Assembly: GCA_032249575.1 (NCBI GenBank)
Contig: JAVVHL010000007.1
Location: 1 to 22,130 of the forward strand
Length of the DNA: 22,130 nt
Origin: Candidatus Calditenuis sp.
Lineage (GTDB): Archaea; Thermoproteota; Nitrososphaeria_A; Caldarchaeales; Calditenuaceae
Reading direction: 5' to 3'
A model generated the notes under the pieces. The model had not been told where the DNA came from, ran no database searches, and saw only the letters and a program-made list of their open reading frames with translations. Of this stretch, positions 545-22,130 are shown in pieces (within the stretch, counting starts at the first letter, position 1; every line of letters starts with the position of its first letter). The translations under genes and the position numbers were made by a program.

Positions 545-605
545 CCTCGAGGTGAGCCCAGCGTATTGGTATGTTGATATGTAGGGCATGGGGTTTGGCG
601 GCGGC

Positions 606-896
606 ATGGGGCTGGAGGAGGAGGTCGGCAGGATCGCGGTCAAGACGCGGGGAAGGGAGGCGGGGCTGAAGTGCGTCATCGTGGACCTCGACAAGGAGGA
701 CGGGTTCGTCGTCGTGACGGGCCCGAAGGACGTCTCGGGCGTCAGGAGGAGGAGGGTCAACGTTCTGCACCTGGCCTTCACTCCCCACAAAGTTAGGATC
801 AGGCGCGGCGCGACGGACGAAGAGGTGAAGAAGGCGCTGGAGGAGGCCGGGCTCCTCGACTACGTCAGATCTAAGGTGAGGGCGGAGGCGCGGTGA
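606..896 (+). CDS. rpl14e: 50S ribosomal protein L14e (eL14, KOW domain)
   Basis: MGLEEEVGRIAVKTRGREAGLKCVIVDLDKEDGFVVVTGPKDVSGVRRRRVNVLHLAFTPHKV..RGATDEEVKKALEEAGL fits the archaeal L14e pattern (GR..vk.aGreaGk.cvIvd...fvlVtGP...gV.RRr.N..HL). The ORF is open from ATG 588. I prefer ATG 606 because it gives the usual ~96 aa and sits ~28 nt downstream of the TATA-like box at 573..582. Confidence 0.85.
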   Translation: MGLEEEVGRIAVKTRGREAGLKCVIVDLDKEDGFVVVTGPKDVSGVRRRRVNVLHLAFTPHKVRIRRGATDEEVKKALEEAGLLDYVRSKVRAEAR

Positions 897-1947
897 CGGT
901 GCTGAGGTTCGTCCACTCCGACCCCTTCAGGGAAAGGGAGAGGGAGACGGTGAGGGTCCGCGAAGCTACGACCGACGAGAGGTACGGGAAGAGGCCTGAG
1001 GAGAGATCGGTGGAGGACCTTCTCCGATTCGGGTACATAGCGGTCGACAAGCACTCGGGGCCTACAAGCCAGGACGTCGTCTCTTCGGTCAGGAGGGTCT
1101 TGGGTGCGGAGGAGGCCGGTCACGGCGGGACCCTCGACGCCGTGAGGGCGGGGGAGATCCCGCTGTAACCGGAGTGCTGCCGGTGCTGCTCGGAAGGGCG
1201 ACGAGGCTGACGCAGGCCGTCACTGGCCTACCGAAGGAGTACGTGGGCGTGATGAGGCTGCACGGCGACGTGAGGGACGAGGAGCTGGCCGAGGCGCTCT
1301 CGAAGTTCGTCGGCGAGATCTACCAGACCCCACCAGTCAGGTCCAGGGTCGCCAGGAGGCCGAGGCTCAGGACCGTCTATGAGCTGGAGGTCATCGAGAG
1401 GGAGGGGAGGGACGTCCTGTTCAGGGCCGTCGTCAGCGGAGGGACCTACGTCAGGAAGCTCTGCCACGACATCGGTCTCCTCCTGGGAACGGGCGCGCAC
1501 ATGAGGGAGCTGAGGAGGACCCGTGTCGGAAACCTCCACGAGTCCCAGTCCCACAACCTCCTCGAGATCTACGCCGCCGTTAGGGCCTACTCGGAGGGCG
1601 ACGAGGGATGGCTCAGGTCGATCCTGAGGAACCCTGAGGAGCTGGTGGCGCACTTGCCGAGGGTCGAGGTCCTCGACACGGCCGTAGACGCCATTTGCCA
1701 CGGAGCACCACTTGCAACTCCAGGCGTCGTGAGCTATGACAGGTCCATCGAGAAGGGCGACCTTGTCGCTATGTTCACGCTGAAGGGCGAGCTGGTGGCC
1801 CTGGGGAGGGCCGAGAAGTCGGCGCTGGACTTCGACGAGGGAGGAGTCTTCGTCAGGACCGACGTCGTCTTGATGGAGAGGGGCACATACCCTCCGTTTT
1901 GGAAGGGGCGCTTCAGAGGACCGGTATCTGGAGAACGCGCATCCTGA
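893..1947 (+). CDS. cbf5: Cbf5 / TruB-family pseudouridine synthase (H/ACA RNP catalytic subunit), interrupted by a 20-nt intron: join(893..1136,1157..1947)
   Basis: ORF 893..1168 carries GYIAVDKHSGPTSQDVVSSVRRVLG..EAGHGGTLD (TruB motifs I and II with the catalytic Asp). ORF 1174..1947 is in another frame and continues with (PAVTG)VLPVLLGRATRL...KEYVGVMRLHGDV and a C-terminal PUA domain. The spliced product is 344 aa, normal for Cbf5. The rpl14e-cbf5 neighbourhood is conserved in archaea. The start codon (GTG 893, overlapping the rpl14e stop) is uncertain. Confidence 0.9.
1137..1156 (+). other. Predicted 20-nt pre-mRNA intron within a canonical bulge-helix-bulge (hBHBh') motif
   Basis: Outer helix 1122-1130 (ACGGCGGGA) pairs with 1158-1166 (UCCCGCUGU), 9 bp including one G-U. 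The 3-nt bulge AGA (1155-1157) is on the 3' strand. The central 4-bp helix is CCCU (1131-1134) with GGGG (1151-1154). The 3-nt bulge CGA (1135-1137) is on the 5' strand. The inner helix is CGCC (1138-1141) with GGCG (1147-1150), closed by loop GUGAG. Cutting after the second bulge nucleotide on each strand (1136|1137 and 1156|1157) removes 20 nt and yields ...GGG ACC CTC GAT CCC GCT GTA ACC GGA... = GTLDPAVTG. Confidence 0.8.
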
Positions 1948-2032: not shown

Positions 2033-4042
2033 ATGTCCTCTGAGGGCATCATGGGAGAGCCTCTGCCCTTCGACGAGAAGATAGTGCCGCCGGGCTACAG
2101 CCAGAGGGTCGTGGACCCCGAGGCCTATTTCGCGTTCCACAGGACGTCGGTAGCGGACGTCGAGGCCTTCTGGGGAAGGGTCGCTGAGGAGCTGGAGTGG
2201 TTCAAGAAGTGGGAGAAGGTGATGGTGCCGGGAGAGTACCCGAACGTCTACAGGTGGTTCGTCGGTGCCGAGACCAACATCTCCTACCTCTGCCTCGACC
2301 GTCACGTCAGGACGTGGCGCCGGAACAAGGTCGCAATAATCTGGGAGGGCGAGCCGGTGGACGAAAAGGGGAACCCGAAGGAGCGGAGGGTCCTCACTTA
2401 CTTCGACCTCTGGAGGCTCGTCAACAGGATCGCCTTCGCCCTCAGACGTCTCGGCGTCCGGAGAGGGTCCCGGGTGGCGATCTACATGCCGATGATACCG
2501 GAGCTGCCTGCTGTCATGCTGGCCTGCGCGAGGCTCGGTGCCGTCTTCACGGTCGTCTTCAGCGGCTTCACCAGCGAGAACCTGGCCGTGAGGATGAGGG
2601 ACCTAGGAGCGCGGTTCCTGATAACGGCCGACGGCTTCTACAGGAGGGGACGCGTGATAGAGCTGAAGAAGGTGGCCGACGAGGCGGTCAACCTCTACGA
2701 CGGCATAGAGAAGGTCGTCGTGGTCAGGAGGCTGATGGCGGATGTGCCGATGAAGGAGGGGCGCGATCTATTCCTCGACGAGCTCCTTGCGGGCGTCCCA
2801 GCGAACGCCTACGTGGAACCGGAGAGGATGACCTGCGATGAGCCCCTTTACGTCCTCTACACCTCAGGAACGACGGGAAAGCCGAAGGGCGTCGTCCACG
2901 ACCATCACGGCTACTCGGTACTCCTGCACGCCACCATGAAGTGGGTCTTCGACATAAGGGACGACGACGTCTACTATTGCACCGCTGACATAGGATGGGT
3001 TACTGGACATAGCTACATCGTCTTCGGGCCTTTGATGGAAGGAGCTACGGTCGTGATGTACGAGGGGACACCCGATTACCCGGCGCCGGACAGGTGGTGG
3101 GCCATAGTCGAGCGTTACGGTGTCACGATACTTTACACGACGCCCACAGCTGTGAGGATGCTGATACGCTTCGGCGACGAGCACGTGAAGCGCCACGACC
3201 TCTCCACGCTCAGGCTGATCCACAGCGTCGGCGAGCCGATCAACCCCTCGGCCTGGAGGTGGCTGTACGAGGTAGTGGGAGGGAAGAGGTGCCCTGTTGG
3301 AAGCACTTGGTGGCAGACGGAGACTGGAGGCATCCTGATCAGCCACACACCCGGATTCATGCTCGTTCCCCTGAAGCCGGGCACTAACGGTCCGCCACTG
3401 CCGGGGATAGAGGTGGACGTAGTCGACGAGCAGGGAAGGCCCCTTCCGCCTGGGTCAAAGGGGTTCCTCGCGATCAAGAAGCCCTGGCCCGGAATGCTAG
3501 CCCCTCCAACCGGGTTGTGGGGCGACCCCGAAGGGTACAACAGGATCTACTGGTCCAGGTACCCGGGGATTTACTACACAGGCGATTACGCTGTTAGGGA
3601 CAAAGACGGCTACATCTGGGTTGCGGGGAGGGCAGATGAGGTGCTGAAGGTCGCCGGCCACAGGATAGGAACCTACGAGCTGGAGTCGGCGCTGGTGGCA
3701 CACGGGGCCGTCGCCGAGTCGGCCGTGGTCGGCGTTCCCGACGAGGTCAAGGGAGAGGCACCGGTGGCCTTCGTCGTCCTCAAGTCAGGGCACCAGCCTT
3801 CCGAGGAGCTGAAGGCCGACCTCGTCCGGTGGATAAGGGAGAGGTACGGGCCGATACTGGTGCCGAAGGAGGTCGTCTTCGTCAGGGCCCTCCCGAAGAC
3901 CAGGAGCGGGAAGATCATGAGGAGGCTCTTGAGGGCGGTCCTGATGGGAGCACCGTTGGGCGACGTCACGACTCTCGAGGACGAGGCTACGGTCGAGGAG
4001 GTAAAGGCGGCGTACGAGGAGCTGAAGAGGCAGATCCGCTGA
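2033..4042 (+). CDS. acs: Acetyl-CoA synthetase (AMP-forming)
   Basis: 669 aa with the AMP-binding signature YTSGTTGKPKG, then WWQTETGG, YYTGDYAVRDKDGYIWVAGRADEVLKVAGHRIGT and the C-terminal PKTRSGKIMRR lysine motif. Length and motif order are typical of Acs. Confidence 0.93.
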   Translation: MSSEGIMGEPLPFDEKIVPPGYSQRVVDPEAYFAFHRTSVADVEAFWGRVAEELEWFKKWEKVMVPGEYPNVYRWFVGAETNISYLCLDRHVRTWRRNKVAIIWEGEPVDEKGNPKERRVLTYFDLWRLVNRIAFALRRLGVRRGSRVAIYMPMIPELPAVMLACARLGAVFTVVFSGFTSENLAVRMRDLGARFLITADGFYRRGRVIELKKVADEAVNLYDGIEKVVVVRRLMADVPMKEGRDLFLDELLAGVPANAYVEPERMTCDEPLYVLYTSGTTGKPKGVVHDHHGYSVLLHATMKWVFDIRDDDVYYCTADIGWVTGHSYIVFGPLMEGATVVMYEGTPDYPAPDRWWAIVERYGVTILYTTPTAVRMLIRFGDEHVKRHDLSTLRLIHSVGEPINPSAWRWLYEVVGGKRCPVGSTWWQTETGGILISHTPGFMLVPLKPGTNGPPLPGIEVDVVDEQGRPLPPGSKGFLAIKKPWPGMLAPPTGLWGDPEGYNRIYWSRYPGIYYTGDYAVRDKDGYIWVAGRADEVLKVAGHRIGTYELESALVAHGAVAESAVVGVPDEVKGEAPVAFVVLKSGHQPSEELKADLVRWIRERYGPILVPKEVVFVRALPKTRSGKIMRRLLRAVLMGAPLGDVTTLEDEATVEEVKAAYEELKRQIR

Positions 4043-8130: not shown

Positions 8131-10599
8131 ATGGGCGCTCAGGCGATAAGCTTCGACTACAGCAAGTACAACTTCAGGGACGAGGTCCAGCCGGTTTACA
8201 GCACCAAGCCAGGTCTCTCGGAGGAGGTGGTCGACGAGATCTCGAGGCTTAAGGACGAGCCGGAGTGGATGAGGAGAAGGAGGCTCGAGGCCTACAGGAT
8301 ATTCCTGCAGAAGCCGATGCCGACGTGGGGAGCTGACCTGAGCTCTCTCGACTTCCAGAAGATGAGGTATTACGTGAGGCCGACCGAGGGGAAGTACAGG
8401 AGCTGGGAGGAGGTCCCGGAGTACATCAAGCGGACCTTCGAGAGGCTCGGGATACCTGAGGCAGAGCGGAAGTTCCTGGCGGGTGTAGGCGCGCAGTACG
8501 ACTCGGAGGTCGTCTACCACAACGTCCGGAGGGAGCTGGAGAAGCTCGGCGTGATCTTCTGCGACATGGACACTGCGGTCCGCGAGTACCCTGAGATCGT
8601 CAGGAGGTACTTCGGCACCGTCGTCCCTGCCGACGACAACAAGTTCGCCGCGCTGAACACCGCGGTCTGGAGCGGAGGATCCTTCGTCTACGTGCCGGAG
8701 GGCGTTGAGGTCGAGTTCCCTCTTCAGGCCTACTTCAGAATCAACGCTGCCAACATGGGACAGTTCGAAAGGACCCTGATCATCGCTGAACCTTACAGCA
8801 AAGTACATTACATTGAGGGGTGCCTTCCGGGCGACGAGCTTGTGCTGAAAGGCGACACCGTGAAACCCATCAGCGAGCTGATGCCCGGTGAGATCGTTCT
8901 CAACGGAGCTGGCGAAGAGACGGTGGTCAGGGCCGTCAGGATCAGGGACTATGAGGGCGAGCTGGTCGAGATAGTTCCCCTGTCACCCGGCAACGCGTTC
9001 CGTCTAACACCGGACCATCCGGTGCTGGTGGTGAGACGGGAGCAAGTGGCCGTCAGGAGGAGGCGCAGGTACAGGCTCGTCGAGACGGACTCTAAGAAGT
9101 TCGAGGGAGTAAGGCCGGAATACGTCCCGGCGGGCGAACTCCGCGAGGGCGACTTCCTGGTGTATCCGGTGAACAGGGAGGTGGAGGACGATCCGAGGTT
9201 CACCGAGGACGTCTTGAAGCTGCTCGGTTACTACCTCGCTGAGGGATCGGCCTTCATACACAAGTCATTGGGGGTGCCTGTTGTCGAGTTTTCCTTGGGG
9301 GCAGATGAGCAGGACATCGTCGAGGAGATAGCTGCATTGATAGAAAAGATTTCGGGGAAGAGGCCCTCTGTTATAAGCTACCGGGAGAGGAAGTCGGTAA
9401 CAGTCGTGACCTATTCCAAGACCGTCTATGACCTCTGCGTCAACGAGTGTCCCGGTCACTCGCACGATCGCGCACTCAGCCGGCGGATCATGAGGCTCCC
9501 ACCGGAGAAGCAGAAGGTGCTGCTGGAGGCCTACCTGAAGGGTGACGGGAGCGTCTACGTGAAGGGCAGGAAGCTGGTGAGGGCTTCTACCGCCTCCAAG
9601 ACGCTCGCCTTCCAGCTCCAAGAGATGCTGGCCAGGCTGGGCATCTTCGCCAGCATAATGGTCAGGAAGGGAGGGGAGGACCGGATAGGAGGGAGGAGAA
9701 TCGTGAGGAGGGACCAATACGTAATCGCGTTCTCGCCCAACAAGAGGTGGAGCGAGGTCAGGCTGGTCGACGGGTTCTTCTACGTCCCGATAAGGAAGGT
9801 GAGGAGGGTCAAGTTCGCAGGTAAGGTATACAATTTGGAGGTGCTCGGTCCCCACGATTCGTACTTAGCCAGAGGATTTGTGGTTCACAACTGCACTGCG
9901 CCGATTTACAGCACCGAGAGCCTCCACGCTGCGGTGGTAGAAGTGATAGCGATGAAGGGGGCGCATGTGAGGTACACGACGCTCCAGAACTGGAGCACCG
10001 ACGTCTACAACCTCGTGACGAAGAGGTCCTTCGCTTACGAGGGGGCGACGGTGGAGTGGGTCGACGCGAACATCGGGAGCAAGGTCACGATGAAGTACCC
10101 GAGCGTTTACCTGCTCGGGAGAGGTGCGAGGGCCGAGATCCTCTCGGTGGCCTTCGCTGGCAGGGGCCAGCACCAGGACACGGGAGCGAAGGCGGTCCAT
10201 CTGGCACCGGACACCACCAGCAGGATCACCTCGAAGTCGGTCTGCAAGGACGGCGGCCGCGTCACCTATAGGGGTCTCCTCCACGTAGCGAAGGGAGCGA
10301 AGAGGGTCAAGTCCAGCGTGAGGTGCGACTCGCTGATACTCGACGACAGGTCGAGGACAGACACTTATCCGTACAACGAGATACAGGAGGACGACGCGAC
10401 GGTCACGCACGAGGCAACTGTGGGCAGGATCGGAGAGGACCAGCTCTTCTACCTGATGAGCAGGGGCATACCGGAGCAGGAGGCGCTCAACATGATCGTG
10501 CTAGGGTTCTTCGAGGGCTTCACGAAGACGCTCCCGATGGAGTACGCCATCGAGTTCAACCGGCTTATAGAGCTGGAGATGAGCGGCAGCGTCGGCTGA
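8131..10599 (+). CDS. sufB: Fe-S cluster assembly protein SufB, containing an in-frame intein (extein 465 aa)
   Basis: N-extein FERTLIIAEPYSKVHYIEG and C-extein CTAPIYSTESLHAAVVEVIAMKGAHVRYTTLQNWS...VEWVDANIGSKVTMKYPSVYL...DTGAKAVHLAPDTTSRITSKSV...SRGIPEQEALNMIVLGF are classic SufB blocks. EG|CTAP is contiguous in intein-free SufB. Confidence 0.92.
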   Translation: MGAQAISFDYSKYNFRDEVQPVYSTKPGLSEEVVDEISRLKDEPEWMRRRRLEAYRIFLQKPMPTWGADLSSLDFQKMRYYVRPTEGKYRSWEEVPEYIKRTFERLGIPEAERKFLAGVGAQYDSEVVYHNVRRELEKLGVIFCDMDTAVREYPEIVRRYFGTVVPADDNKFAALNTAVWSGGSFVYVPEGVEVEFPLQAYFRINAANMGQFERTLIIAEPYSKVHYIEGCLPGDELVLKGDTVKPISELMPGEIVLNGAGEETVVRAVRIRDYEGELVEIVPLSPGNAFRLTPDHPVLVVRREQVAVRRRRRYRLVETDSKKFEGVRPEYVPAGELREGDFLVYPVNREVEDDPRFTEDVLKLLGYYLAEGSAFIHKSLGVPVVEFSLGADEQDIVEEIAALIEKISGKRPSVISYRERKSVTVVTYSKTVYDLCVNECPGHSHDRALSRRIMRLPPEKQKVLLEAYLKGDGSVYVKGRKLVRASTASKTLAFQLQEMLARLGIFASIMVRKGGEDRIGGRRIVRRDQYVIAFSPNKRWSEVRLVDGFFYVPIRKVRRVKFAGKVYNLEVLGPHDSYLARGFVVHNCTAPIYSTESLHAAVVEVIAMKGAHVRYTTLQNWSTDVYNLVTKRSFAYEGATVEWVDANIGSKVTMKYPSVYLLGRGARAEILSVAFAGRGQHQDTGAKAVHLAPDTTSRITSKSVCKDGGRVTYRGLLHVAKGAKRVKSSVRCDSLILDDRSRTDTYPYNEIQEDDATVTHEATVGRIGEDQLFYLMSRGIPEQEALNMIVLGFFEGFTKTLPMEYAIEFNRLIELEMSGSVG
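8821..9891 (+). mobile_element. Intein (357 aa) with LAGLIDADG homing-endonuclease domain
   Basis: Starts at Cys (CLPGDELVL, block A). Block B TxxH is present in FRLTPDHPVLV. The two LAGLIDADG motifs are LLGYYLAEGS (9220..9249) and LLEAYLKGDGS (9520..9552). Block F/G is VYNLEVLGPHDSYLARGFVVHN, followed by +1 Cys (TGC 9892..9894). The length is a multiple of 3 (1071 nt). Confidence 0.9.
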
Positions 10600-12010: not shown

Positions 12011-13045
12011 TCAGGGAGAACCCCGGACGAACCTCGGCCTCGGATACGAGAGGTTCAGGGCCACCTCGGCGATGTCGGTCGAGTACTCGACGACCCTCTT
12101 GACGTTGTCGTACAGCACCCTGAGGGCAACCTGAGATCCAATGGGCAGCCTCCGCTCGAGCGTCTTCACGAAGAGCCTTTCCAGCTCCCGCAGGTACTCG
12201 GAGGCGTCATCGATCAGCTTCTGCGAATTCTCCGCGTCCGGTTCAAGGACCGCATCCACCGACCTCCGGAAGTACGTTGTGCATGCGAAGCAGTCGTTGT
12301 AGAACTCACCGAAGGAATTGACGTCGAGGTTCCGCTCCAAAGTCAGCAACGCTACGTTGGTCGCATGGTCCGCAACCCTCTCGATGCTCCGAGCCACCAT
12401 CGTGTACCCGAGGAGGAGCTGGGGCTCATCGATCTCAAGCGGTTGGAGTATCCTAGGATCGATGATCGTCAGGTTGGTCAACCTGACCATGTAATGGTAG
12501 AACCGGTCCACCTCGTCGTCCCTGTCTATCAGGTCCTGCACCTCATCTCTTGAAGGGTTGGCCAGCAGCGAGAGCGAGTCCTGGACCATGCCTGCAGCTA
12601 TCGTCCCCATCCTCGAGATCACCTGCCTCGGAGGCAGATCCCTGTGAAGCTGGACCACGTTCAGCACGATCCCGTCGAGCCTCTCGTCGACGACCTCGAC
12701 GCCTGCCAGCCACCTCCTAGCCGTCTCCTTTATGCCCCTCAGGATGCCTGGAGCGGCGCCGTCGAGCTTGATCCTGATCGAGGAATAGCCGGCCAGATAG
12801 AGCGAGATCAGCGACCTCACGGCCACGTCCAGCGTCGCGTTCTCCCGCAGCTCGAGCACGCCCTCGTTCAGCGCGGCGTCCGCAGGGATCATCGTGACCG
12901 GACCTGTTGGCAGCACAACCATCGTCACCTCGTCGCCCTTGCCGAGGCCGAACTGCTCGGCCCACTCCTTCGGCAGAGAGACGATCAGCGTCGAGCCACC
13001 GGTCACCTGTAGCCTCCGGTTGAAGGTCCTCATTTCGTCCTTCAA
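12011..13045 (-). CDS. AbrB/SpoVT-domain plus PhoU-domain fusion protein (putative phosphate-responsive regulator)
   Basis: The N-terminus RRLQVTGGSTLIVSLPKEWAEQFGLGKGDEVTMV is a SpoVT/AbrB swapped-hairpin DNA-binding domain. The C-terminal part has two PhoU-like repeats ending in SIERVADHATNVA and RVVEYSTDIAEVA (the E/D-R-x-x-D-h motif). ATG 13033 is the more likely start than TTG 13045. The gene is divergent from pstS. Confidence 0.8.
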   Translation of the reverse strand: MKDEMRTFNRRLQVTGGSTLIVSLPKEWAEQFGLGKGDEVTMVVLPTGPVTMIPADAALNEGVLELRENATLDVAVRSLISLYLAGYSSIRIKLDGAAPGILRGIKETARRWLAGVEVVDERLDGIVLNVVQLHRDLPPRQVISRMGTIAAGMVQDSLSLLANPSRDEVQDLIDRDDEVDRFYHYMVRLTNLTIIDPRILQPLEIDEPQLLLGYTMVARSIERVADHATNVALLTLERNLDVNSFGEFYNDCFACTTYFRRSVDAVLEPDAENSQKLIDDASEYLRELERLFVKTLERRLPIGSQVALRVLYDNVKRVVEYSTDIAEVALNLSYPRPRFVRGSP

Positions 13046-13180
13046 TATAGAGATGAAGGGTGCTATATAGTCTGATATTTTTAGCCCGTCCTGTTGCGGC
13101 TCAATAGTCTATTTGTAGCTCTATATAGCAAGTCCGTCATCTATAAATTCAGTCGGGCCTGAGGGGAGATCGCGAAGGAC
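13046..13180. promoter_or_regulatory. A/T-rich divergent promoter/operator region between the AbrB-PhoU gene and pstS
   Basis: The palindromic octamer CTATATAG occurs twice (13063..13070 and 13121..13128). ATAGTCT occurs twice (13066..13072 and 13104..13110). A further TATA-like TCTATAAATT is at 13140..13149. Local GC is far below the window average. Confidence 0.55.
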
Positions 13181-14311
13181 ATGATCGGAATCCGGAATTC
13201 GAGGATCGGCATGGCACTGAACGTGATGGCGGTGGCGATGCTCGTGGCCGGGCTGCTGGTGGGGTTGGCGATCGGGTTCGGCGTCGGAATGGTGGGCGGC
13301 GGAGGCGAGAGGGTCGTGACCGTAACTGTTGGCGGAGGCGAGAGGGTCGTGACTGTTCAGCGTACCGTGACCGTTACTGCTGGAGGAGCTACGACGCCGG
13401 TTAAGCTCAGCGGCAAGATCGTCATAGACGGCTCCAGCACCGTCTACCCCCTGACTGAAGCCGCGGCTGAGGAGTTCATGAAGCTCCACCGAGACGTCCA
13501 GATCACCGTAGGCATCTCCGGAACGGGCGGAGGTTTCAAGAGGTTCGTCATCGGCGAGACCGACATCAACGACGCTTCCAGGCCGATACTGAAGTCCGAG
13601 GCTGAGATAGCGGCCAAGAGCGGCGTAGAGTGGATCGAAGTCCCGGTGGCCATAGACGGCCTCGTGGTGGTCGTGAACCCGCAGAACGACTGGGTCGATT
13701 GCATAACGATATCGGAGCTGAGGGAGATCTGGAAGCCAGACAGCAAAATAACCAAGTGGAACCAGATAAGACCGGAATGGCCGGATGCGCCTATCAAGCT
13801 GTACGGAGCAGGACCCGACTCCGGCACCTTCGACTACTTCACGGAGCGTGTGGTGGGCAAGACTAAGGCCTCCAGGACCGATTACGTGGCATCCGAGGAC
13901 GATAACGTTCTGGCAGAGGGAGTTGCGGCTGAAAAGTATGCACTCGGATACTTCGGTTACGCCTACTACTACGAGAACCCCGGGAGGCTCAAAGCGTTAA
14001 AGGTCAAGGACGACGCCATACCCGGTGCCGAGTGCGTTGAGCCCAACGACGATACGGTGAGCCGGTTCGTTTATCCGCTCTCCAGGCCGCTCTTCATCTA
14101 CGTCAACAAGAAGATGTGGAACGAGAAGCCCGCCCTCAGGGAGTTCGTGATCTTCTATGTCGAGAACGGCGCGAGGTTTGCCAAGAAGGTGGGCTACACA
14201 CCGCTGCCGGCCGACTACTACAAGGTCGCTGCAGCTCTGCTTAGGGCGGGGATGATTGACGGGCTATACGGTTTGACGACCGTGGTCCTGAAGAACGCAG
14301 GTCCTCACTGA
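13181..14311 (+). CDS. pstS: Phosphate ABC transporter substrate-binding protein PstS (membrane-anchored)
   Basis: N-terminal TM anchor MALNVMAVAMLVAGLLVGLAIGF, then IDGSSTVYPLTEAAAEEF, ISGTGGGFKRFVIGETDINDASRPI and the GAGPDSGTFDYF motifs typical of PstS/PBP2. It is the first gene of pstSCAB-phoU. Confidence 0.9.
   Translation: MIGIRNSRIGMALNVMAVAMLVAGLLVGLAIGFGVGMVGGGGERVVTVTVGGGERVVTVQRTVTVTAGGATTPVKLSGKIVIDGSSTVYPLTEAAAEEFMKLHRDVQITVGISGTGGGFKRFVIGETDINDASRPILKSEAEIAAKSGVEWIEVPVAIDGLVVVVNPQNDWVDCITISELREIWKPDSKITKWNQIRPEWPDAPIKLYGAGPDSGTFDYFTERVVGKTKASRTDYVASEDDNVLAEGVAAEKYALGYFGYAYYYENPGRLKALKVKDDAIPGAECVEPNDDTVSRFVYPLSRPLFIYVNKKMWNEKPALREFVIFYVENGARFAKKVGYTPLPADYYKVAAALLRAGMIDGLYGLTTVVLKNAGPH
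13298..13363 (+). repeat. Tandem 33-nt (11-codon) duplication inside the pstS linker
   Basis: GGCGGAGGCGAGAGGGTCGTGAC occurs at 13298..13320 and again at 13331..13353 (23/23 identical). It encodes GGGERVVTVTV / GGGERVVTVQR between the membrane anchor and the binding domain. Confidence 0.9.
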
Positions 14312-14314
14312 ACG

Positions 14315-15268
14315 GTGGCGGAAAACGAGGTAGGAATCATGGCCGAGCAACAGAGGTCCGTTATTTTTTTGGGTTCTAAATCCATCCATCGCCGGAACCT
14401 GATAAACAGGGTCGCCCAGTCCACCTTTTTGTTGGCGTCGCTGGTCTCCACGGTCGCACTCATCGTGATCTTCTTTACGCTGATCACAGAATCGATATCG
14501 TTCTTCACCCACGTCAGCGTCATCGAGTTCCTTACGGGGACCAAGTGGACGGTGCTCTTCGCTGAGAAGCACTTCGGAATACTGCCGCTGCTCAACGCGA
14601 CGCTCATCACGTCGGCTATCGCTGTTGCAGTCGCTGCACCGGCAGGGCTCGCGGCTGCCATCTATCTGAGCGAGTACGCGGGGAATAGGGCGAGGGGTCT
14701 CCTCAAACCCGTCCTCGAGACCCTCTCAGGAATACCGACGGTGGTTTACGGGTACTTCGCCCTCTACTTCGTCACGCCTCAACTCCTGAGAGGCCTGATA
14801 CCCGATCTCGGAATACACAACGCGCTCGCCGTCGGGCTCATGATCGGCGTGCTCGTCATGCCAATCGTAGCCTCCCTCAGCGACGACGCCATGAAGGCGG
14901 TACCGGAGGACCTCAGGATGGCGGCCTACTCGCTCGGCGCAAGGAAATACCAGGTGGTACTGCGGGTGGTCGTTCCTGCTGCCCTCTCAGGCATAATGGC
15001 CTCGGTGATTTTGGCCTTCGCGAGGGCGATGGGCGAGACGATGATCGCAGCCATAGCCGGCGGCTTCAGGCCCATACTCTCGTTCGACGTCAAGGAGGCC
15101 ATGCAGACCATGCCCTCGTACATCGCCCAGGTCGCAACCGGTGACGCGCCGCACGGAACGATCGAATACCAATCCCTCTTCGCGGTCGGGCTCTTCCTCC
15201 TGCTGATCACGGCTGCCCTGAACTTCATCGGCGTAAGGGTGGTGAGGAGATGGGAGATCAGGTATTGA
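14315..15268 (+). CDS. pstC: Phosphate ABC transporter permease PstC
   Basis: Multi-TM protein with the EAA-type loop (MAAYSLGARKYQVVLRVVVPAALSGIMASVILAFARAMGETM), positioned between pstS and pstA. ATG 14339 is an alternative start. Confidence 0.88.
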   Translation: MAENEVGIMAEQQRSVIFLGSKSIHRRNLINRVAQSTFLLASLVSTVALIVIFFTLITESISFFTHVSVIEFLTGTKWTVLFAEKHFGILPLLNATLITSAIAVAVAAPAGLAAAIYLSEYAGNRARGLLKPVLETLSGIPTVVYGYFALYFVTPQLLRGLIPDLGIHNALAVGLMIGVLVMPIVASLSDDAMKAVPEDLRMAAYSLGARKYQVVLRVVVPAALSGIMASVILAFARAMGETMIAAIAGGFRPILSFDVKEAMQTMPSYIAQVATGDAPHGTIEYQSLFAVGLFLLLITAALNFIGVRVVRRWEIRY

Positions 15269-16149
15269 AAGGCGGTGAGGTTTTGCGGCAGCGTGCAGCT
15301 AAGCGGAGGAAGGTCAACGACGTCCTCGTGCCTCTGGCAGCCAGCATAGGCGTCTTCGTCGCGATCGCCTTTCTGGTCTCTCTGCTGCTCTACGTCGTCA
15401 GCATGGGCGCAGGCAGGTTGAGCCCATCGCTGCTCTTCGAGTACCCTTCGGCCAACCCGAGGGAAGCGGGGATGAGGAGCGCGATACTCGGATCGGTGTT
15501 CACGGTGGGCCTTGCGGGGCTGATCTGCATACCGCTCAGCATCGTTACCGCCATCTACCTCACCGAGTACGCGGGCAGCAAGTGGTGGTCGCAAGTTCTC
15601 CGCTACAACATCGCTAACCTCGCAGGCGTACCCTCGGTCGTCTTCGGCGTGGTAGGGCTCGGGTTCCTCGTCTACGGACTCGGCCTCGGAAGGTCTGTGA
15701 TAGCAGGCGCGTTCACGCTGGCCATACTGACGCTGCCTTACGTCACGGTGGTCTGCGTCGAGGCCATCAAGACGGTGCCTGAAGACCAGAGGTTCGGGGC
15801 CTACGCTCTCGGAGCCACGACTTACGAGGTGGTGAGACACATCGTTCTGCCGAGGGCTCTGCCGATGATGCTGACCGGAGGGATACTGGGAATATCGAGG
15901 GCCCTGGGCGAGGCGGCACCGATACTGGTCATCAGCGGCCTGCTCTTCATAAGGGAGGACCCGACGTCGCTCCTCAGCGAGTTCACGGTCATGCCGCTCC
16001 AGCTTTACAACTGGATCAGCAGACCCCAGTTGGCTTTCCAGCAGCTGGCCGCTGCGGGCATAATCGTCTTGCTGGCGATACTGCTAGCGTTGAACTCGCT
16101 TGCGATTTACCTGAGGCAGCGCTTCTACAGGAGGCTCGAGGAGGGATGA
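15250..16149 (+). CDS. pstA: Phosphate ABC transporter permease PstA
   Basis: Multi-TM protein with the EAA loop [43 protein letters not shown]. It overlaps pstC by 19 nt and pstB by 4 nt (ATGA). Confidence 0.88.
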
Positions 16150-17003
16150 GCGAGGCCATCGCTATCAATACCCTCGAAGAGGTCGTTTCAGGGAGGTCAG
16201 AGGTAGAGGTGAATCAGATGTCAGCTCCCGACGACGCCATCATCCAGGTCAGGGACCTCGCTGTCAGGTACCGATCCCGCTATGCGATCAGGGACATCAA
16301 CATCGACTTCAGGAGGAACCACATAACCGCCATCATAGGGCCTTCCGGCTGCGGGAAGTCGACCCTTCTCAGATCACTTAACAGGATGAACGACCTGATA
16401 CCGGGAGCCGATGTCGAGGGAAAGGTCCTGTACCACGGCATCGACATATACTCCAAGGATGTGGACCCCGTAGCGCTCAGGTCGAGGATCGGCATGGTCT
16501 TCCAAAGGCCGAACCCGTTCCCGATGAGCATCTTCGACAACGTGGCCTTCGGTCTCAGGGTGAACGGCATCAAGCTTACGAAGGACGAGCTGCAGAGGAG
16601 GGTGAGGGAGGCGCTGGAGAAGGCGGCGCTCTGGGAAGAGGTCAAGGACAGGCTCGACGCCCACGCTTACTCGCTTTCCGGAGGACAGCAGCAGAGGCTC
16701 TGCATAGCGAGGGCCCTGGCAGTGGAGCCGGAGGTTCTGCTCCTGGACGAGCCGACCGTATCTCTCGACCCAATATCGACCGCCAAGATAGAGGAGCTGC
16801 TGATTTCGATCAAGAAGGACTACACCATCATCATCGTCACCCACAACATGCAGCAGGCCGCCAGGGTCTCGGACTACACGGCCGTCATGATGCCCGACGA
16901 GAACATGGTCGGGAGGCTCATCGAGTTCGGGCCGACGAAGGAGGTATTTACGAGGCCGCGTGACAGGAGGACTGAGGCCTACATCGCGGGGAGGATAGGC
17001 TGA
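16146..17003 (+). CDS. pstB: Phosphate ABC transporter ATP-binding protein PstB
   Basis: Walker [10 protein letters not shown], PstB-typical [10 protein letters not shown], signature [14 protein letters not shown], Walker B LLLDEPT, and the H-loop [13 protein letters not shown]. Confidence 0.95.
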
Positions 17004-17004
17004 G

Positions 17005-17622
17005 TTGACCAAGCTGATCGAGTCCAAGCTGAAGGACATCAGCGGGCTGCTGGGCGAGATGGCGGTCCTATCTCAGAAGGCGCTCAGCTTGGCGGTGGAC
17101 TCTTTCGTCAACAACAGGCCGCTCGAGAGCGAGGCGTTCAATCTTGCTGAGCAGCTGAGGATGCTTCACCACAAGGTGATGGACCTCTCAACGGAAGCCA
17201 TAGCCAGGTATCAGCCCGTCGCGACGGACCTGAGGTTCATCAGGGCTTGCGGCGAGGTCTCATACGGTCTGTATAGGACTGGCAGGTACGCGTACGACAT
17301 CGTGGGAACAGTCACCGTCTTCGGCGATCTGAGGGGTTGCAGCTGGGAAGACGTCATCAGGACGAGCGGCGTGGTGAAGGAGATGCTGGCTCTTGCGATT
17401 GAGGCCTTCAGCAACCTCGACGAGCGACAGGCGCTTGAGGTGATAAGGATGGACGACGTCGTCGACGGCGAGTACCGACGCTACCTCACGAAGGTGATCG
17501 AGGGAGGCGGTGAGCGGAGGTGCGAGATCGCTGGGCTCCTCATCATGCGCTACCTCGAGAGGATGGCCGACCACGCCAACGCGATAGCCGAGGCCGCGAT
17601 GTACGTGATCAGAGGGATCTGA
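17005..17622 (+). CDS. phoU: Phosphate signalling/uptake regulator PhoU
   Basis: 205 aa, two-repeat helical protein with PVATDLRFIRACGEVSYGLYRTGRYAYDI and LIMRYLERMADHANAIAEAA (the PhoU E-R-x-x-D-h motifs). It lies immediately after pstB. TTG start. Confidence 0.85.
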   Translation: MTKLIESKLKDISGLLGEMAVLSQKALSLAVDSFVNNRPLESEAFNLAEQLRMLHHKVMDLSTEAIARYQPVATDLRFIRACGEVSYGLYRTGRYAYDIVGTVTVFGDLRGCSWEDVIRTSGVVKEMLALAIEAFSNLDERQALEVIRMDDVVDGEYRRYLTKVIEGGGERRCEIAGLLIMRYLERMADHANAIAEAAMYVIRGI

Positions 17623-18466: not shown

Positions 18467-19714
<1,248 letters not shown>

Positions 19715-19788: not shown

Positions 19789-20445
19789 ATGTACTGCTCC
19801 TGGCACGCGGGCAGCTCCTGGGGGAGGCCGAAGACGGGACTCTTCAACGTCACACTAGGCAGCTCGAAGGTCGTTCTGGACTCCATAACGTCGGTGACCG
19901 TGCCCAAGGCCGAGGAGAGGGAGGCCATCAAGAGGTTCGGGCTGGGGAAGGCGGTGAAGGTCGAGAGGCGAGGTGAGGTGAACTTCGTCGTCCAGTGGAT
20001 TAGGAACAGGTCCCTGATCAGGTACATCGTGAACTGGGGGAAGTTGTCGTCCATCTTCCCAGTCCACCTCACGACGGCCTGCTGCTCCGTCGAGTACGCG
20101 GCCACCGTGGGTTCGAGGTATGATCCGGAGAGGTTCGGGATACTGAACGCCGTTGGGTCCCTCAGGCAGTCGGACCTGCTCCTCGTCGAGGGAACTGTTA
20201 CAGCCAAGATGGCCCAGCGCGTCAGGGTGATCTACGACCAGATGCCGGACCCGAAGTGGGTGATCGCGATGGGGGCCTGTGCCATCTCCGGTGGACTCTA
20301 CGCTAAGGACTCTTACAACGTGATACAGGGAATCGACGACATAGTTCCGGTGGACGTCTACGTCCCCGGATGCCCTCCGAGACCAGAGACCCTGATTCAC
20401 GGCTTTATTCTGCTGAGGGACAAGATACTGAACGAGAGGCTCTGA
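19789..20445 (+). CDS. nuoB: NADH-quinone oxidoreductase subunit B (NuoB / 20-kDa, N2 cluster subunit) with an unusually long N-terminus
   Basis: WGKLSSIFPVHLTTACCSVEY, DLLLVEGTVTAKMAQRV, WVIAMGACAISGG and VPVDVYVPGCPPRPE supply the four conserved Cys of the NuoB/hydrogenase small-subunit family. About 85 aa precede the first motif, versus roughly 30-40 as I recall for typical NuoB. An in-frame GTG at 19978 would give a conventional 155-aa protein. Confidence 0.85.
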   Translation: MYCSWHAGSSWGRPKTGLFNVTLGSSKVVLDSITSVTVPKAEEREAIKRFGLGKAVKVERRGEVNFVVQWIRNRSLIRYIVNWGKLSSIFPVHLTTACCSVEYAATVGSRYDPERFGILNAVGSLRQSDLLLVEGTVTAKMAQRVRVIYDQMPDPKWVIAMGACAISGGLYAKDSYNVIQGIDDIVPVDVYVPGCPPRPETLIHGFILLRDKILNERL

Positions 20446-20446
20446 G

Positions 20447-20935
20447 GTGATAGCGTTGTCGAAGGTCCAGTCGATAATAGACGAGATGAGGGAGAGGTTC
20501 GGCGACAAAGTGAGGAACGTCGTCGTCGACAGGAAGATAATCAAGGTGGAGGTCGAGAGGTCAGTCGTCGTCGAGGCGGCGAGGTTCCTGAAGGAGAGGG
20601 GATTCGACCACGTGAAGGGCGTGACGGGGGCGGACCTGATCGCTTTGACGAAGCCGGAGAACGCGATCGAGGTGATTTACCACGCAGGCTCTTACACTGA
20701 CGAGGAGCTCAAGGGAACCGTGTTATCGCTTTCGGTGAAGCTTCCGCGCGACGACCCCGAGATGCCTTCGCTGACACAGGTCTGGCGGAGCGCCGAGTAC
20801 CACGAGCGGGAGACCTTCGAGATGCTGGGAGTCAAGTTCGTGGGCCATCCGGACCTGAGGAGACTGCTCCTGCCCGAGTGGTACTCCGACATACCGCCCC
20901 TCAGGAAGGACTTCAAGCCCGCCGGTCGCGCCTGA
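20447..20935 (+). CDS. nuoC: NADH-quinone oxidoreductase subunit C (NuoC / 30-kDa)
   Basis: SLTQVWRSAEYHERETFEMLGVKFVGHPDLRRLLLPE is the NuoC signature (E-R-E-x2-D/E-x-F-G-x3-G-H-P-x-L-R). GTG start 1 nt after the nuoB stop. Confidence 0.85.
   Translation: MIALSKVQSIIDEMRERFGDKVRNVVVDRKIIKVEVERSVVVEAARFLKERGFDHVKGVTGADLIALTKPENAIEVIYHAGSYTDEELKGTVLSLSVKLPRDDPEMPSLTQVWRSAEYHERETFEMLGVKFVGHPDLRRLLLPEWYSDIPPLRKDFKPAGRA

Positions 20936-21170: not shown

Positions 21171-22130
<960 letters not shown>

Follow-up and report, generated by a model that had tools for sequence, protein, structure and literature searches.

A predicted bulge-helix-bulge intron in the catalytic aspartate codon of cbf5 from a Calditenuaceae aigarchaeote

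Introduction

Introns in archaeal protein-coding genes are extremely rare. A known case is the intron of the crenarchaeal cbf5 precursor mRNA (Watanabe et al. 2002; Yoshinari et al. 2006; Yokobori et al. 2009, PMC2738675), which is flanked by a structure resembling a bulge-helix-bulge (BHB), is cut by the splicing endonuclease EndA, disrupts the codon of a catalytic residue and is removed in vivo in Aeropyrum and Sulfolobus (Yokobori 2009, PMC2738675, and papers cited there). In these crenarchaeal transcripts the splicing endonuclease follows the rule of cleaving between the second and third residues of each bulge (Yokobori 2009, PMC2738675). Here we analyse a 22,130-nt stretch of DNA from Candidatus (Ca.) Calditenuis sp. 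(contig JAVVHL010000007.1, hereafter the window), in which the cbf5 gene is interrupted at its catalytic aspartate codon by 20 nt that, with high confidence, we read as a BHB intron removed from the precursor mRNA by the tRNA-type splicing machinery.

The 2009 survey found the intron in Desulfurococcales and Sulfolobales only and scored Thaumarchaeota, Korarchaeum and Thermoproteales as intronless (Yokobori, PMC2738675); intron loss has been published for Pyrodictiaceae and Ignicoccus. Reviews from 2020 (PMC7714728) and 2023 still confine introns of protein genes to cbf5 in a small crenarchaeal group and to one Haloferax 5' untranslated region (5' UTR). Among aigarchaeotes, Ca. Caldiarchaeum subterraneum is known to have a heterotetrameric splicing endonuclease and many BHB introns in its tRNA genes.

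Results

In the window cbf5 spans 893..1947 (all coordinates are those of the window and refer to the plus strand unless stated otherwise), and its frame is interrupted directly after the motif GHGGTLD. The first open reading frame (ORF), 893..1168, ends ...GHGGTLDAVRAGEIPL with a TAA stop at 1166..1168, the C-terminal end of its product being ...AGHGGTLDAVRAGEIPL, and a second ORF, 1174..1947, begins in a different frame with (V)LPVLLGRATRL. When 1137..1156 is deleted, G1136 is joined to A1157 and a single ORF of 344 codons results, whose 344-aa product reads ...GHGGTLDPAVTGVLPV... across the junction. The resulting gene structure is as follows, a slash marking the junction.

893..1136, plus strand: cbf5 exon 1, with the DKCLD region, the motif ...AGHGGTL and the first base, G1136, of the catalytic Asp codon
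1137..1156, plus strand: BHB intron, 20 nt, ACGCCGUGAGGGCGGGGGAG
1157..1947, plus strand: cbf5 exon 2, with the AU that completes the Asp codon, then PAVTGVLPV..., TruB_N, TruB_C_2 and PUA; stop codon at 1945-1947
Predicted spliced frame across the junction: ...GHGGTLDPAVTG...
Predicted spliced junction, exon 1/exon 2: GGGACCCTCG/ATCCCGCTGTAACC
Predicted spliced junction k-mer: GGCGGGACCCTCGATCCCGCTGTAACC
Unspliced junction k-mer: GGGACCCTCGACGCCGTGAGG

The spliced product contains the Pfam domains DKCLD, TruB_N, TruB_C_2 and PUA and scores above the cut-offs of both NCBIfam equivalogs for Cbf5 (379 bits, cut-off 242; 363 bits, cut-off 238). Only in this product does the catalytic Asp of GTLDP stand together with the TruB_N and PUA domains. 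Its alignment to Cbf5 of Pyrococcus furiosus (2hvy_A) is gapless through AGHGGTLDP-V-GVLPV, with E=2.3e-87. By these profile and alignment matches the host gene is cbf5, encoding the H/ACA pseudouridine synthase, an RNA-modifying enzyme. Both exons are under purifying selection: compared with the related locus L001, the ratio of nonsynonymous to synonymous substitution rates (dN/dS) comes to 0.14 in exon 1 and 0.07 in exon 2 (dS ~0.4). An initial annotation, made from the window's letters alone, had reported the break, the resumption in another frame and a conceptually spliced product of 344 aa, all of which we recover. It had also placed the split between GTLD and P; while the 20-nt BHB intron, the excision of 1137..1156 and the restored frame stand, the site lies inside the Asp codon (G/AU) and not between the Asp and Pro codons. 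The intron is thus of phase 1, exon 1 ending at G1136 and exon 2 starting at A1157.

The RNA around the insert folds into the elements listed below, which agree helix by helix, bulge by bulge and in the loop with those that the initial annotation had drawn.

1116..1120, plus strand: predicted 5-bp extension of the outer helix, CCGGU pairing with ACCGG 1168-1172 past a 1x1 mismatch, in the MFE and centroid structures of the window sequence only
1122..1130, plus strand: outer helix h, 5' strand, ACGGCGGGA, covering exon 1 His, Gly, Gly and Thr codons; partner 1158-1166
1131..1134, plus strand: central helix H, 5' strand, CCCU, forming 4 bp with GGGG 1151-1154
1135..1137, plus strand: 5' bulge, CGA; predicted cut between G1136 and A1137
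1138..1150, plus strand: inner helix h' and loop, CGCC 1138-1141 pairing with GGCG 1147-1150 in 4 Watson-Crick pairs, 5-nt loop GUGAG
1151..1154, plus strand: central helix, 3' strand, GGGG, internal to the intron
1155..1157, plus strand: 3' bulge, AGA; predicted cut between G1156 and A1157
1158..1166, plus strand: outer helix h, 3' strand, UCCCGCUGU, in exon 2, comprising the third base of the Asp codon and then the Pro, Ala and Val codons

The fold has a 3-nt bulge on each strand and a 4-bp helix between the two bulges, and both flanking helices hold at least 2 Watson-Crick pairs, which makes this a strict hBHBh' motif. The outer helix runs for 9 contiguous base pairs, 8 of them Watson-Crick and 1 G-U. 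Cutting after the second base of each bulge yields GHGGTLDPAV, which is colinear with the orthologues and aligns to 2hvy_A without a gap. The ViennaRNA centroid structure of 1110..1180 is exactly the proposed BHB, and the minimum free energy (MFE) of this segment is -41.2 kcal/mol (z=-3.55), a stability equalled by none of 200 shuffled sequences. BHBs as strict as this one, defined for the purpose of the scan as having an outer helix of at least 9 bp and an inner helix of at least 4 bp, are expected by chance ~0.15 times per strand, as estimated from a scan of the window and 40 dinucleotide shuffles. That such a motif should fall precisely on the base that restores the frame of a broken essential gene is not a matter of chance. 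The spliced Asp codon, GAU, closes the helix through the pair A1130-U1158 and is the sole GAU among the 18 Asp codons of cbf5; elsewhere among the window's genes, 13% of Asp codons are GAU. Judged from this codon choice and from the outer-helix pairing of relatives given below, synonymous sites are fixed in favour of pairing.

Relatives were collected by scanning species-representative genomes and metagenome contigs, and in each locus the GHGGTL and PxVxG motifs were located and the intervening DNA was measured. The nearest relatives by amino-acid identity are Ca. Calditenuaceae archaeon JGI OTU-1 (94%) and Ca. Calditenuis fumarioli (90%), joined by other metagenome-assembled genomes (MAGs) of Caldarchaeales and by several metagenome contigs with identities of 97-99%, among them Ga0209670_100235 and Ga0079997_126088 at 99%. 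The cbf5 coding sequence of one contig, L081, is identical to that of the window. Of the relatives, 32 distinct sequences have an insert of 14-38 nt at this same site of cbf5. It is present throughout the intron-bearing Caldarchaeales clade (26 of 26 sequences, 14-22 nt), and also in Ignisphaera, Desulfurococcales and Sulfolobales loci (18-38 nt), in one MAG each of Methanomethylicia (23 nt) and Nezhaarchaeales (19 nt) and in several unlabelled hot-spring contigs; in the two MAGs and the unlabelled contigs related to them (L068, L074, L132, L141, L156 and L159 taken together) the inserts are of BHB type and measure 18-23 nt. No insert was found in more than 100 loci from Euryarchaeota, DPANN, Nitrososphaerales, Thermofilum and other Thermoprotei. 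Every intron bearer forms its four central base pairs in one and the same register, in which exon 1 ends at the G of the Asp codon and exon 2 starts with AU or AC. The initial annotation had proposed comparing the insertion position with the published crenarchaeal introns, and the comparison places the G/AU cut of the window in register with Ignisphaera, Sulfolobales HS-7 and Desulfurococcales loci, all of which share the G/AY site.

In the alignment of the 32 distinct sequences, 85.5% of the cells of the proposed structure are paired; sliding the 3' partners by 1-3 columns lowers this to 42-57%, and neither the pairing nor the covariation score is attained by any of 500 shuffles. All 32 sequences form the central helix in full, with compensatory C-G to U-A double changes at two of its four pairs. 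In the inner helix all four pairs vary on both sides across the relatives, and 86% of the cells remain paired. Outer-helix pairing reaches 8-9 of 9 positions in Caldarchaeales, whereas the corresponding codons of intronless orthologues pair at ~5 of 9.

Three other explanations of the interrupted frame have to be considered. The first is translational recoding of the unspliced mRNA, either by a programmed frameshift within 1137-1165 or by a hop of the ribosome from GAC 1136-1138 to GAU 1156-1158. In this window alone, two Asp codons do flank the gap with a hairpin between them. However, the insert lengths (14, 15, 16, 17, 18, 19, 20, 22, 23, 33 and 36 nt) fall into all three frame classes, so that no one shift direction would serve, and in five Caldarchaeales loci (L002, L003, L004, L040 and L050) the would-be take-off codon, that is the unspliced codon after Leu, encodes Gly or Val and an Asp codon arises only upon splicing. 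These two observations together exclude frameshifting and ribosome hopping. A frameshift should moreover leave 6-7 additional residues between D and P, which no orthologue has; the initial annotation had named tolerance of such an insertion among orthologues as what would speak for a frameshift, and residues between D and P occur in 0 of the more than 100 intronless orthologues. What is conserved is a covarying BHB, not a slippery site. We therefore give recoding next to no weight.

A dead or mis-assembled gene, be it a pseudogene or a 20-nt artefact of sequencing or assembly, would also present a broken frame followed by a stop codon, and close relatives are represented in public protein databases by truncated versions of 247-257 aa only. 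Nevertheless, many samples, assembled independently, share an identical or homologous insert (L081-L088, L001-L004 and others), this insert has a covarying structure, and the selection on both exons is strongly purifying. No second copy of cbf5 was seen, the whole source genome lying outside the scope of the search. The initial annotation had thought a sequencing error or pseudogene unlikely, and on the shared insert, the constrained exons and the covariation we consider either to be highly improbable. Equally hard to credit is a split gene, in which polypeptides of 91 aa and ~257 aa would assemble into an active enzyme in the absence of RNA splicing, for although gene callers do predict a 257-aa product from GTG 1174, this arrangement would cut the invariant GTLDP loop, strand the catalytic Asp on a fragment with 9 unrelated terminal residues, start the C-terminal part at what is the Val codon of TGVLPV (SGLLP in relatives) and leave the conserved BHB with no role.

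The 257-aa prediction has counterparts in the databases. The proteins closest to the spliced product (P0001-P0006, 73-99% identity) are all exon-2 fragments of 247-257 aa, some of which NCBI names Cbf5. Since the entries of the nearest relatives are exon-2 fragments only, annotation pipelines evidently miss the intron, and the consequence is a systematic mis-annotation in which the genomes of these relatives are scored as having a truncated Cbf5 that lacks the catalytic Asp.

Upstream, cbf5 adjoins a ribosomal protein gene whose stop codon overlaps the GTG start of cbf5 at 893, which is the conserved L14e-cbf5 arrangement.

588..896, plus strand: L14e ribosomal protein gene (NCBIfam PRK04333, the L14e equivalog, 98.8 bits against a cut-off of 87)

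The acetyl-CoA synthetase gene 2033..4042 contains, at ~3878..3947, another strict BHB-like fold, whose outer helix has 11 bp and which would excise 42 nt in frame (3895..3936). This excision would remove KTRSGKIMRRLLRA, including the conserved lysine motif, and the inner helix is lost in the related loci L001 and L004; with ~0.15 such folds expected per strand by chance, the fold is probably fortuitous. Searched with Rfam at gathering thresholds, the window gave no family for the cbf5 intron and a single match, the first 960 nt of a 16S rRNA gene at 21171..22130, and ARAGORN found no tRNA genes in the window, hence no tRNA introns with which to compare. Further along, 8131..10599 (plus strand) encodes an 822-aa SufB/SufD-family protein of Fe-S assembly that contains an intein, its N-terminal region being separated from the core by intein-splicing and LAGLIDADG homing-endonuclease domains. 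A phosphate-uptake cluster occupies 12011..17622, with a PhoU-domain regulator bearing an AbrB/MazE-type N-terminal domain on the minus strand and, on the plus strand, genes for a PstS-like binding protein, two permeases, an ABC ATPase and PhoU. Isocitrate lyase (18467..19714) and NuoB- and NuoC-like genes (19789..20935) come next.

Discussion

We propose that the intron would be removed in the following way. The precursor mRNA would be a transcript shared by cbf5 and the upstream L14e gene, in which the His-Gly-Gly-Thr codons of exon 1 pair with the Asp-Pro-Ala-Val codons of exon 2 to build the outer helix from exon sequence on both sides. The 4-bp central helix would arise from CCCU, with which exon 1 ends, and GGGG at the intron's 3' end, the remainder of the intron folding into a small hairpin. 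EndA, the splicing endonuclease of tRNA and rRNA, would cut after the second base of each bulge, between G1136 and A1137 and between G1156 and A1157, and an RtcB-type ligase would join the exons, completing the Asp codon from G and AU and allowing the full 344-aa enzyme to be made. Cleavage by EndA and RtcB-type ligation are inferred here from the EndA data on crenarchaeal cbf5 and from the endonuclease of Ca. Caldiarchaeum subterraneum. An unspliced mRNA would yield only a 91-aa peptide that lacks the downstream catalytic domain, and production of Cbf5 would therefore depend on the RNA-splicing machinery.

Several points weigh against this interpretation. Cleavage, ligation and the enzymes responsible are all inferred, and neither EndA nor RtcB is encoded within the 22,130 nt of the window. 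The MFE fold of 1110..1180 pairs the 5' bulge in part, and the exact BHB, as the centroid, lies 0.9 kcal/mol above it. Variation in the outer helix is one-sided only, for example G-C to G-U, a restriction that follows because this helix is built from conserved coding sequence. Finally, the overlap of cbf5 with the L14e gene means that the exon-exon helix would tend to be unwound by coupled translation, and splicing would have to outcompete the ribosomes. With these points taken into account, we still hold it very probable that cbf5 carries a BHB intron that is spliced from its mRNA. Being both strict and very stable, the BHB would offer a clean substrate for the question of how EndA recognizes an mRNA and how splicing competes with coupled translation.

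According to the NCBI taxonomy, Calditenuaceae belong to the Caldarchaeales within Nitrososphaerota ('Aigarchaeota'). The initial annotation had seen in this intron both an extension of a known class and a lineage marker. The class is indeed extended; given that the host is a Calditenuaceae aigarchaeote, however, the intron is no marker of Desulfurococcales plus Sulfolobales. The loci collected here widen the known host range to Caldarchaeales, Methanomethylicia, Nezhaarchaeales and one Aenigmarchaeota-like contig, an extension that is apparently unreported: in the literature searched we found no report of a cbf5 intron in Aigarchaeota, Caldiarchaeum or Thaumarchaeota, a search that left many subscription papers outside its scope and in which absence is no proof. 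That the same intron sits at the same base throughout most of the sampled Caldarchaeales and in further lineages means either that it is older than thought or that the site has been invaded repeatedly.

The distribution of the intron bears on its history. A rough neighbour-joining tree places a group of full-length, intronless Cbf5 proteins (P0007-P0037, 53-57% identity), one of them named Ca. Wolframiiraptor by NCBI, within the intron-bearing clade of Caldarchaeales. In 100 of 100 bootstraps the intronless and intron-bearing groups together form a monophyletic group, which the intron bearers alone do in 0 of 100. This placement suggests that the Wolframiiraptor-containing group lost its intron secondarily, like Pyrodictiaceae and Ignicoccus. 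A different event may be represented by the soil metagenome contig Ga0066710_100019618 (L119:1651-1694), in which a 15-nt insert with an in-frame TGA, AAAGAAAUUGAGGAA, occupies the same G/AU site and has a compensated central helix (CCUU/GAGG), a 6-bp outer helix and a stable fold (z=-4.2). All of the 120 database proteins most closely related to its Cbf5 are full-length, and the named ones are Ca. Aenigmarchaeota (DPANN); the L119 intron may be an independent gain outside the TACK archaea.

In the same rough tree the intron-bearing clades are separated by intronless ones; the intron of the window has the same site and architecture as the crenarchaeal introns. We tentatively raise the possibility, to which we give somewhat less than an even chance, that BHB introns were gained more than once across Archaea at the catalytic-Asp codon of cbf5, where Caldarchaeales, the Methanomethylicia/Nezhaarchaeales group, Desulfurococcales/Sulfolobales and the L119 contig all carry one. 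The HGG(T/S)L and DPxV codons are already partly self-complementary and would supply a ready-made outer helix, and a small hairpin insert ending in GGGG-NN would then become an EndA substrate; the flanking codons may in this manner make the site prone to acquiring a BHB. The alternative is a single, much older origin in the common ancestor of TACK archaea with many later losses, for which Wolframiiraptoraceae, Nitrososphaerales, Thermoproteales and Pyrodictiaceae would be candidates. As a separate observation, in several introns from Caldarchaeales and Ignisphaera (L022, L035, L070 and L078) the ACCCUAG of the preceding exon recurs in the intron's 5' part, ACCCUAAC or AACCCAAC, a repeat that may point to an origin by local duplication or to alternative pairing registers.

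Judged by gene, site and size range, as the initial annotation had also suggested, the intron of the window is a member of the known class of cbf5 pre-mRNA introns. It shares with the crenarchaeal introns (Watanabe et al. 2002; Yoshinari et al. 2006; Yokobori et al. 2009, PMC2738675) the host gene, the insertion site within the codon of the catalytic Asp, a BHB-type structure whose cut sites follow the second base of each bulge, and a 3' end (GGGG plus a 2-nt bulge) that pairs with the Thr-Leu codons. Its 20 nt, which contain no ORF, fall inside the published range of 16-44 bp, with Caldarchaeales (14-22 nt) at the short end. The known hosts are Desulfurococcales and Sulfolobales, whereas the host here is a Calditenuaceae aigarchaeote. 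In addition, the crenarchaeal motifs are mostly 'unconventional' or relaxed (PMC2738675), in contrast to the strict hBHBh' with a contiguous 9-bp outer helix in the window; consistent with this, the crenarchaeal loci folded here have a 3x3 internal loop or no contiguous outer helix, and those of Caldarchaeales have a strict hBHBh'.

The EndA-cut BHB introns of archaeal tRNA and rRNA have the same 3-4-3 geometry and flanking helices of at least 2 Watson-Crick pairs (definition of PMC7714728), and the same enzymes would act on the cbf5 intron. Unlike those introns, it lies in a protein-coding frame, both strands of its outer helix are coding, and no tRNA body aids its recognition. Another BHB intron in an mRNA is that of Haloferax volcanii HVO_1309, whose removal is EndA-dependent (Schwarz et al. 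2020, PMC7714728). That intron, however, is situated in the untranslated leader of a euryarchaeal gene, whereas the cbf5 intron breaks a codon and its removal would be obligatory for the protein. In eukaryotes, the splicing of HAC1/XBP1 mRNA works alike in that Ire1 cuts at two small stem-loop or bulge sites, tRNA ligase or RtcB joins the exons and the reading frame changes, but it employs another endonuclease family and another RNA motif, serves a regulated stress response and has no known evolutionary link.

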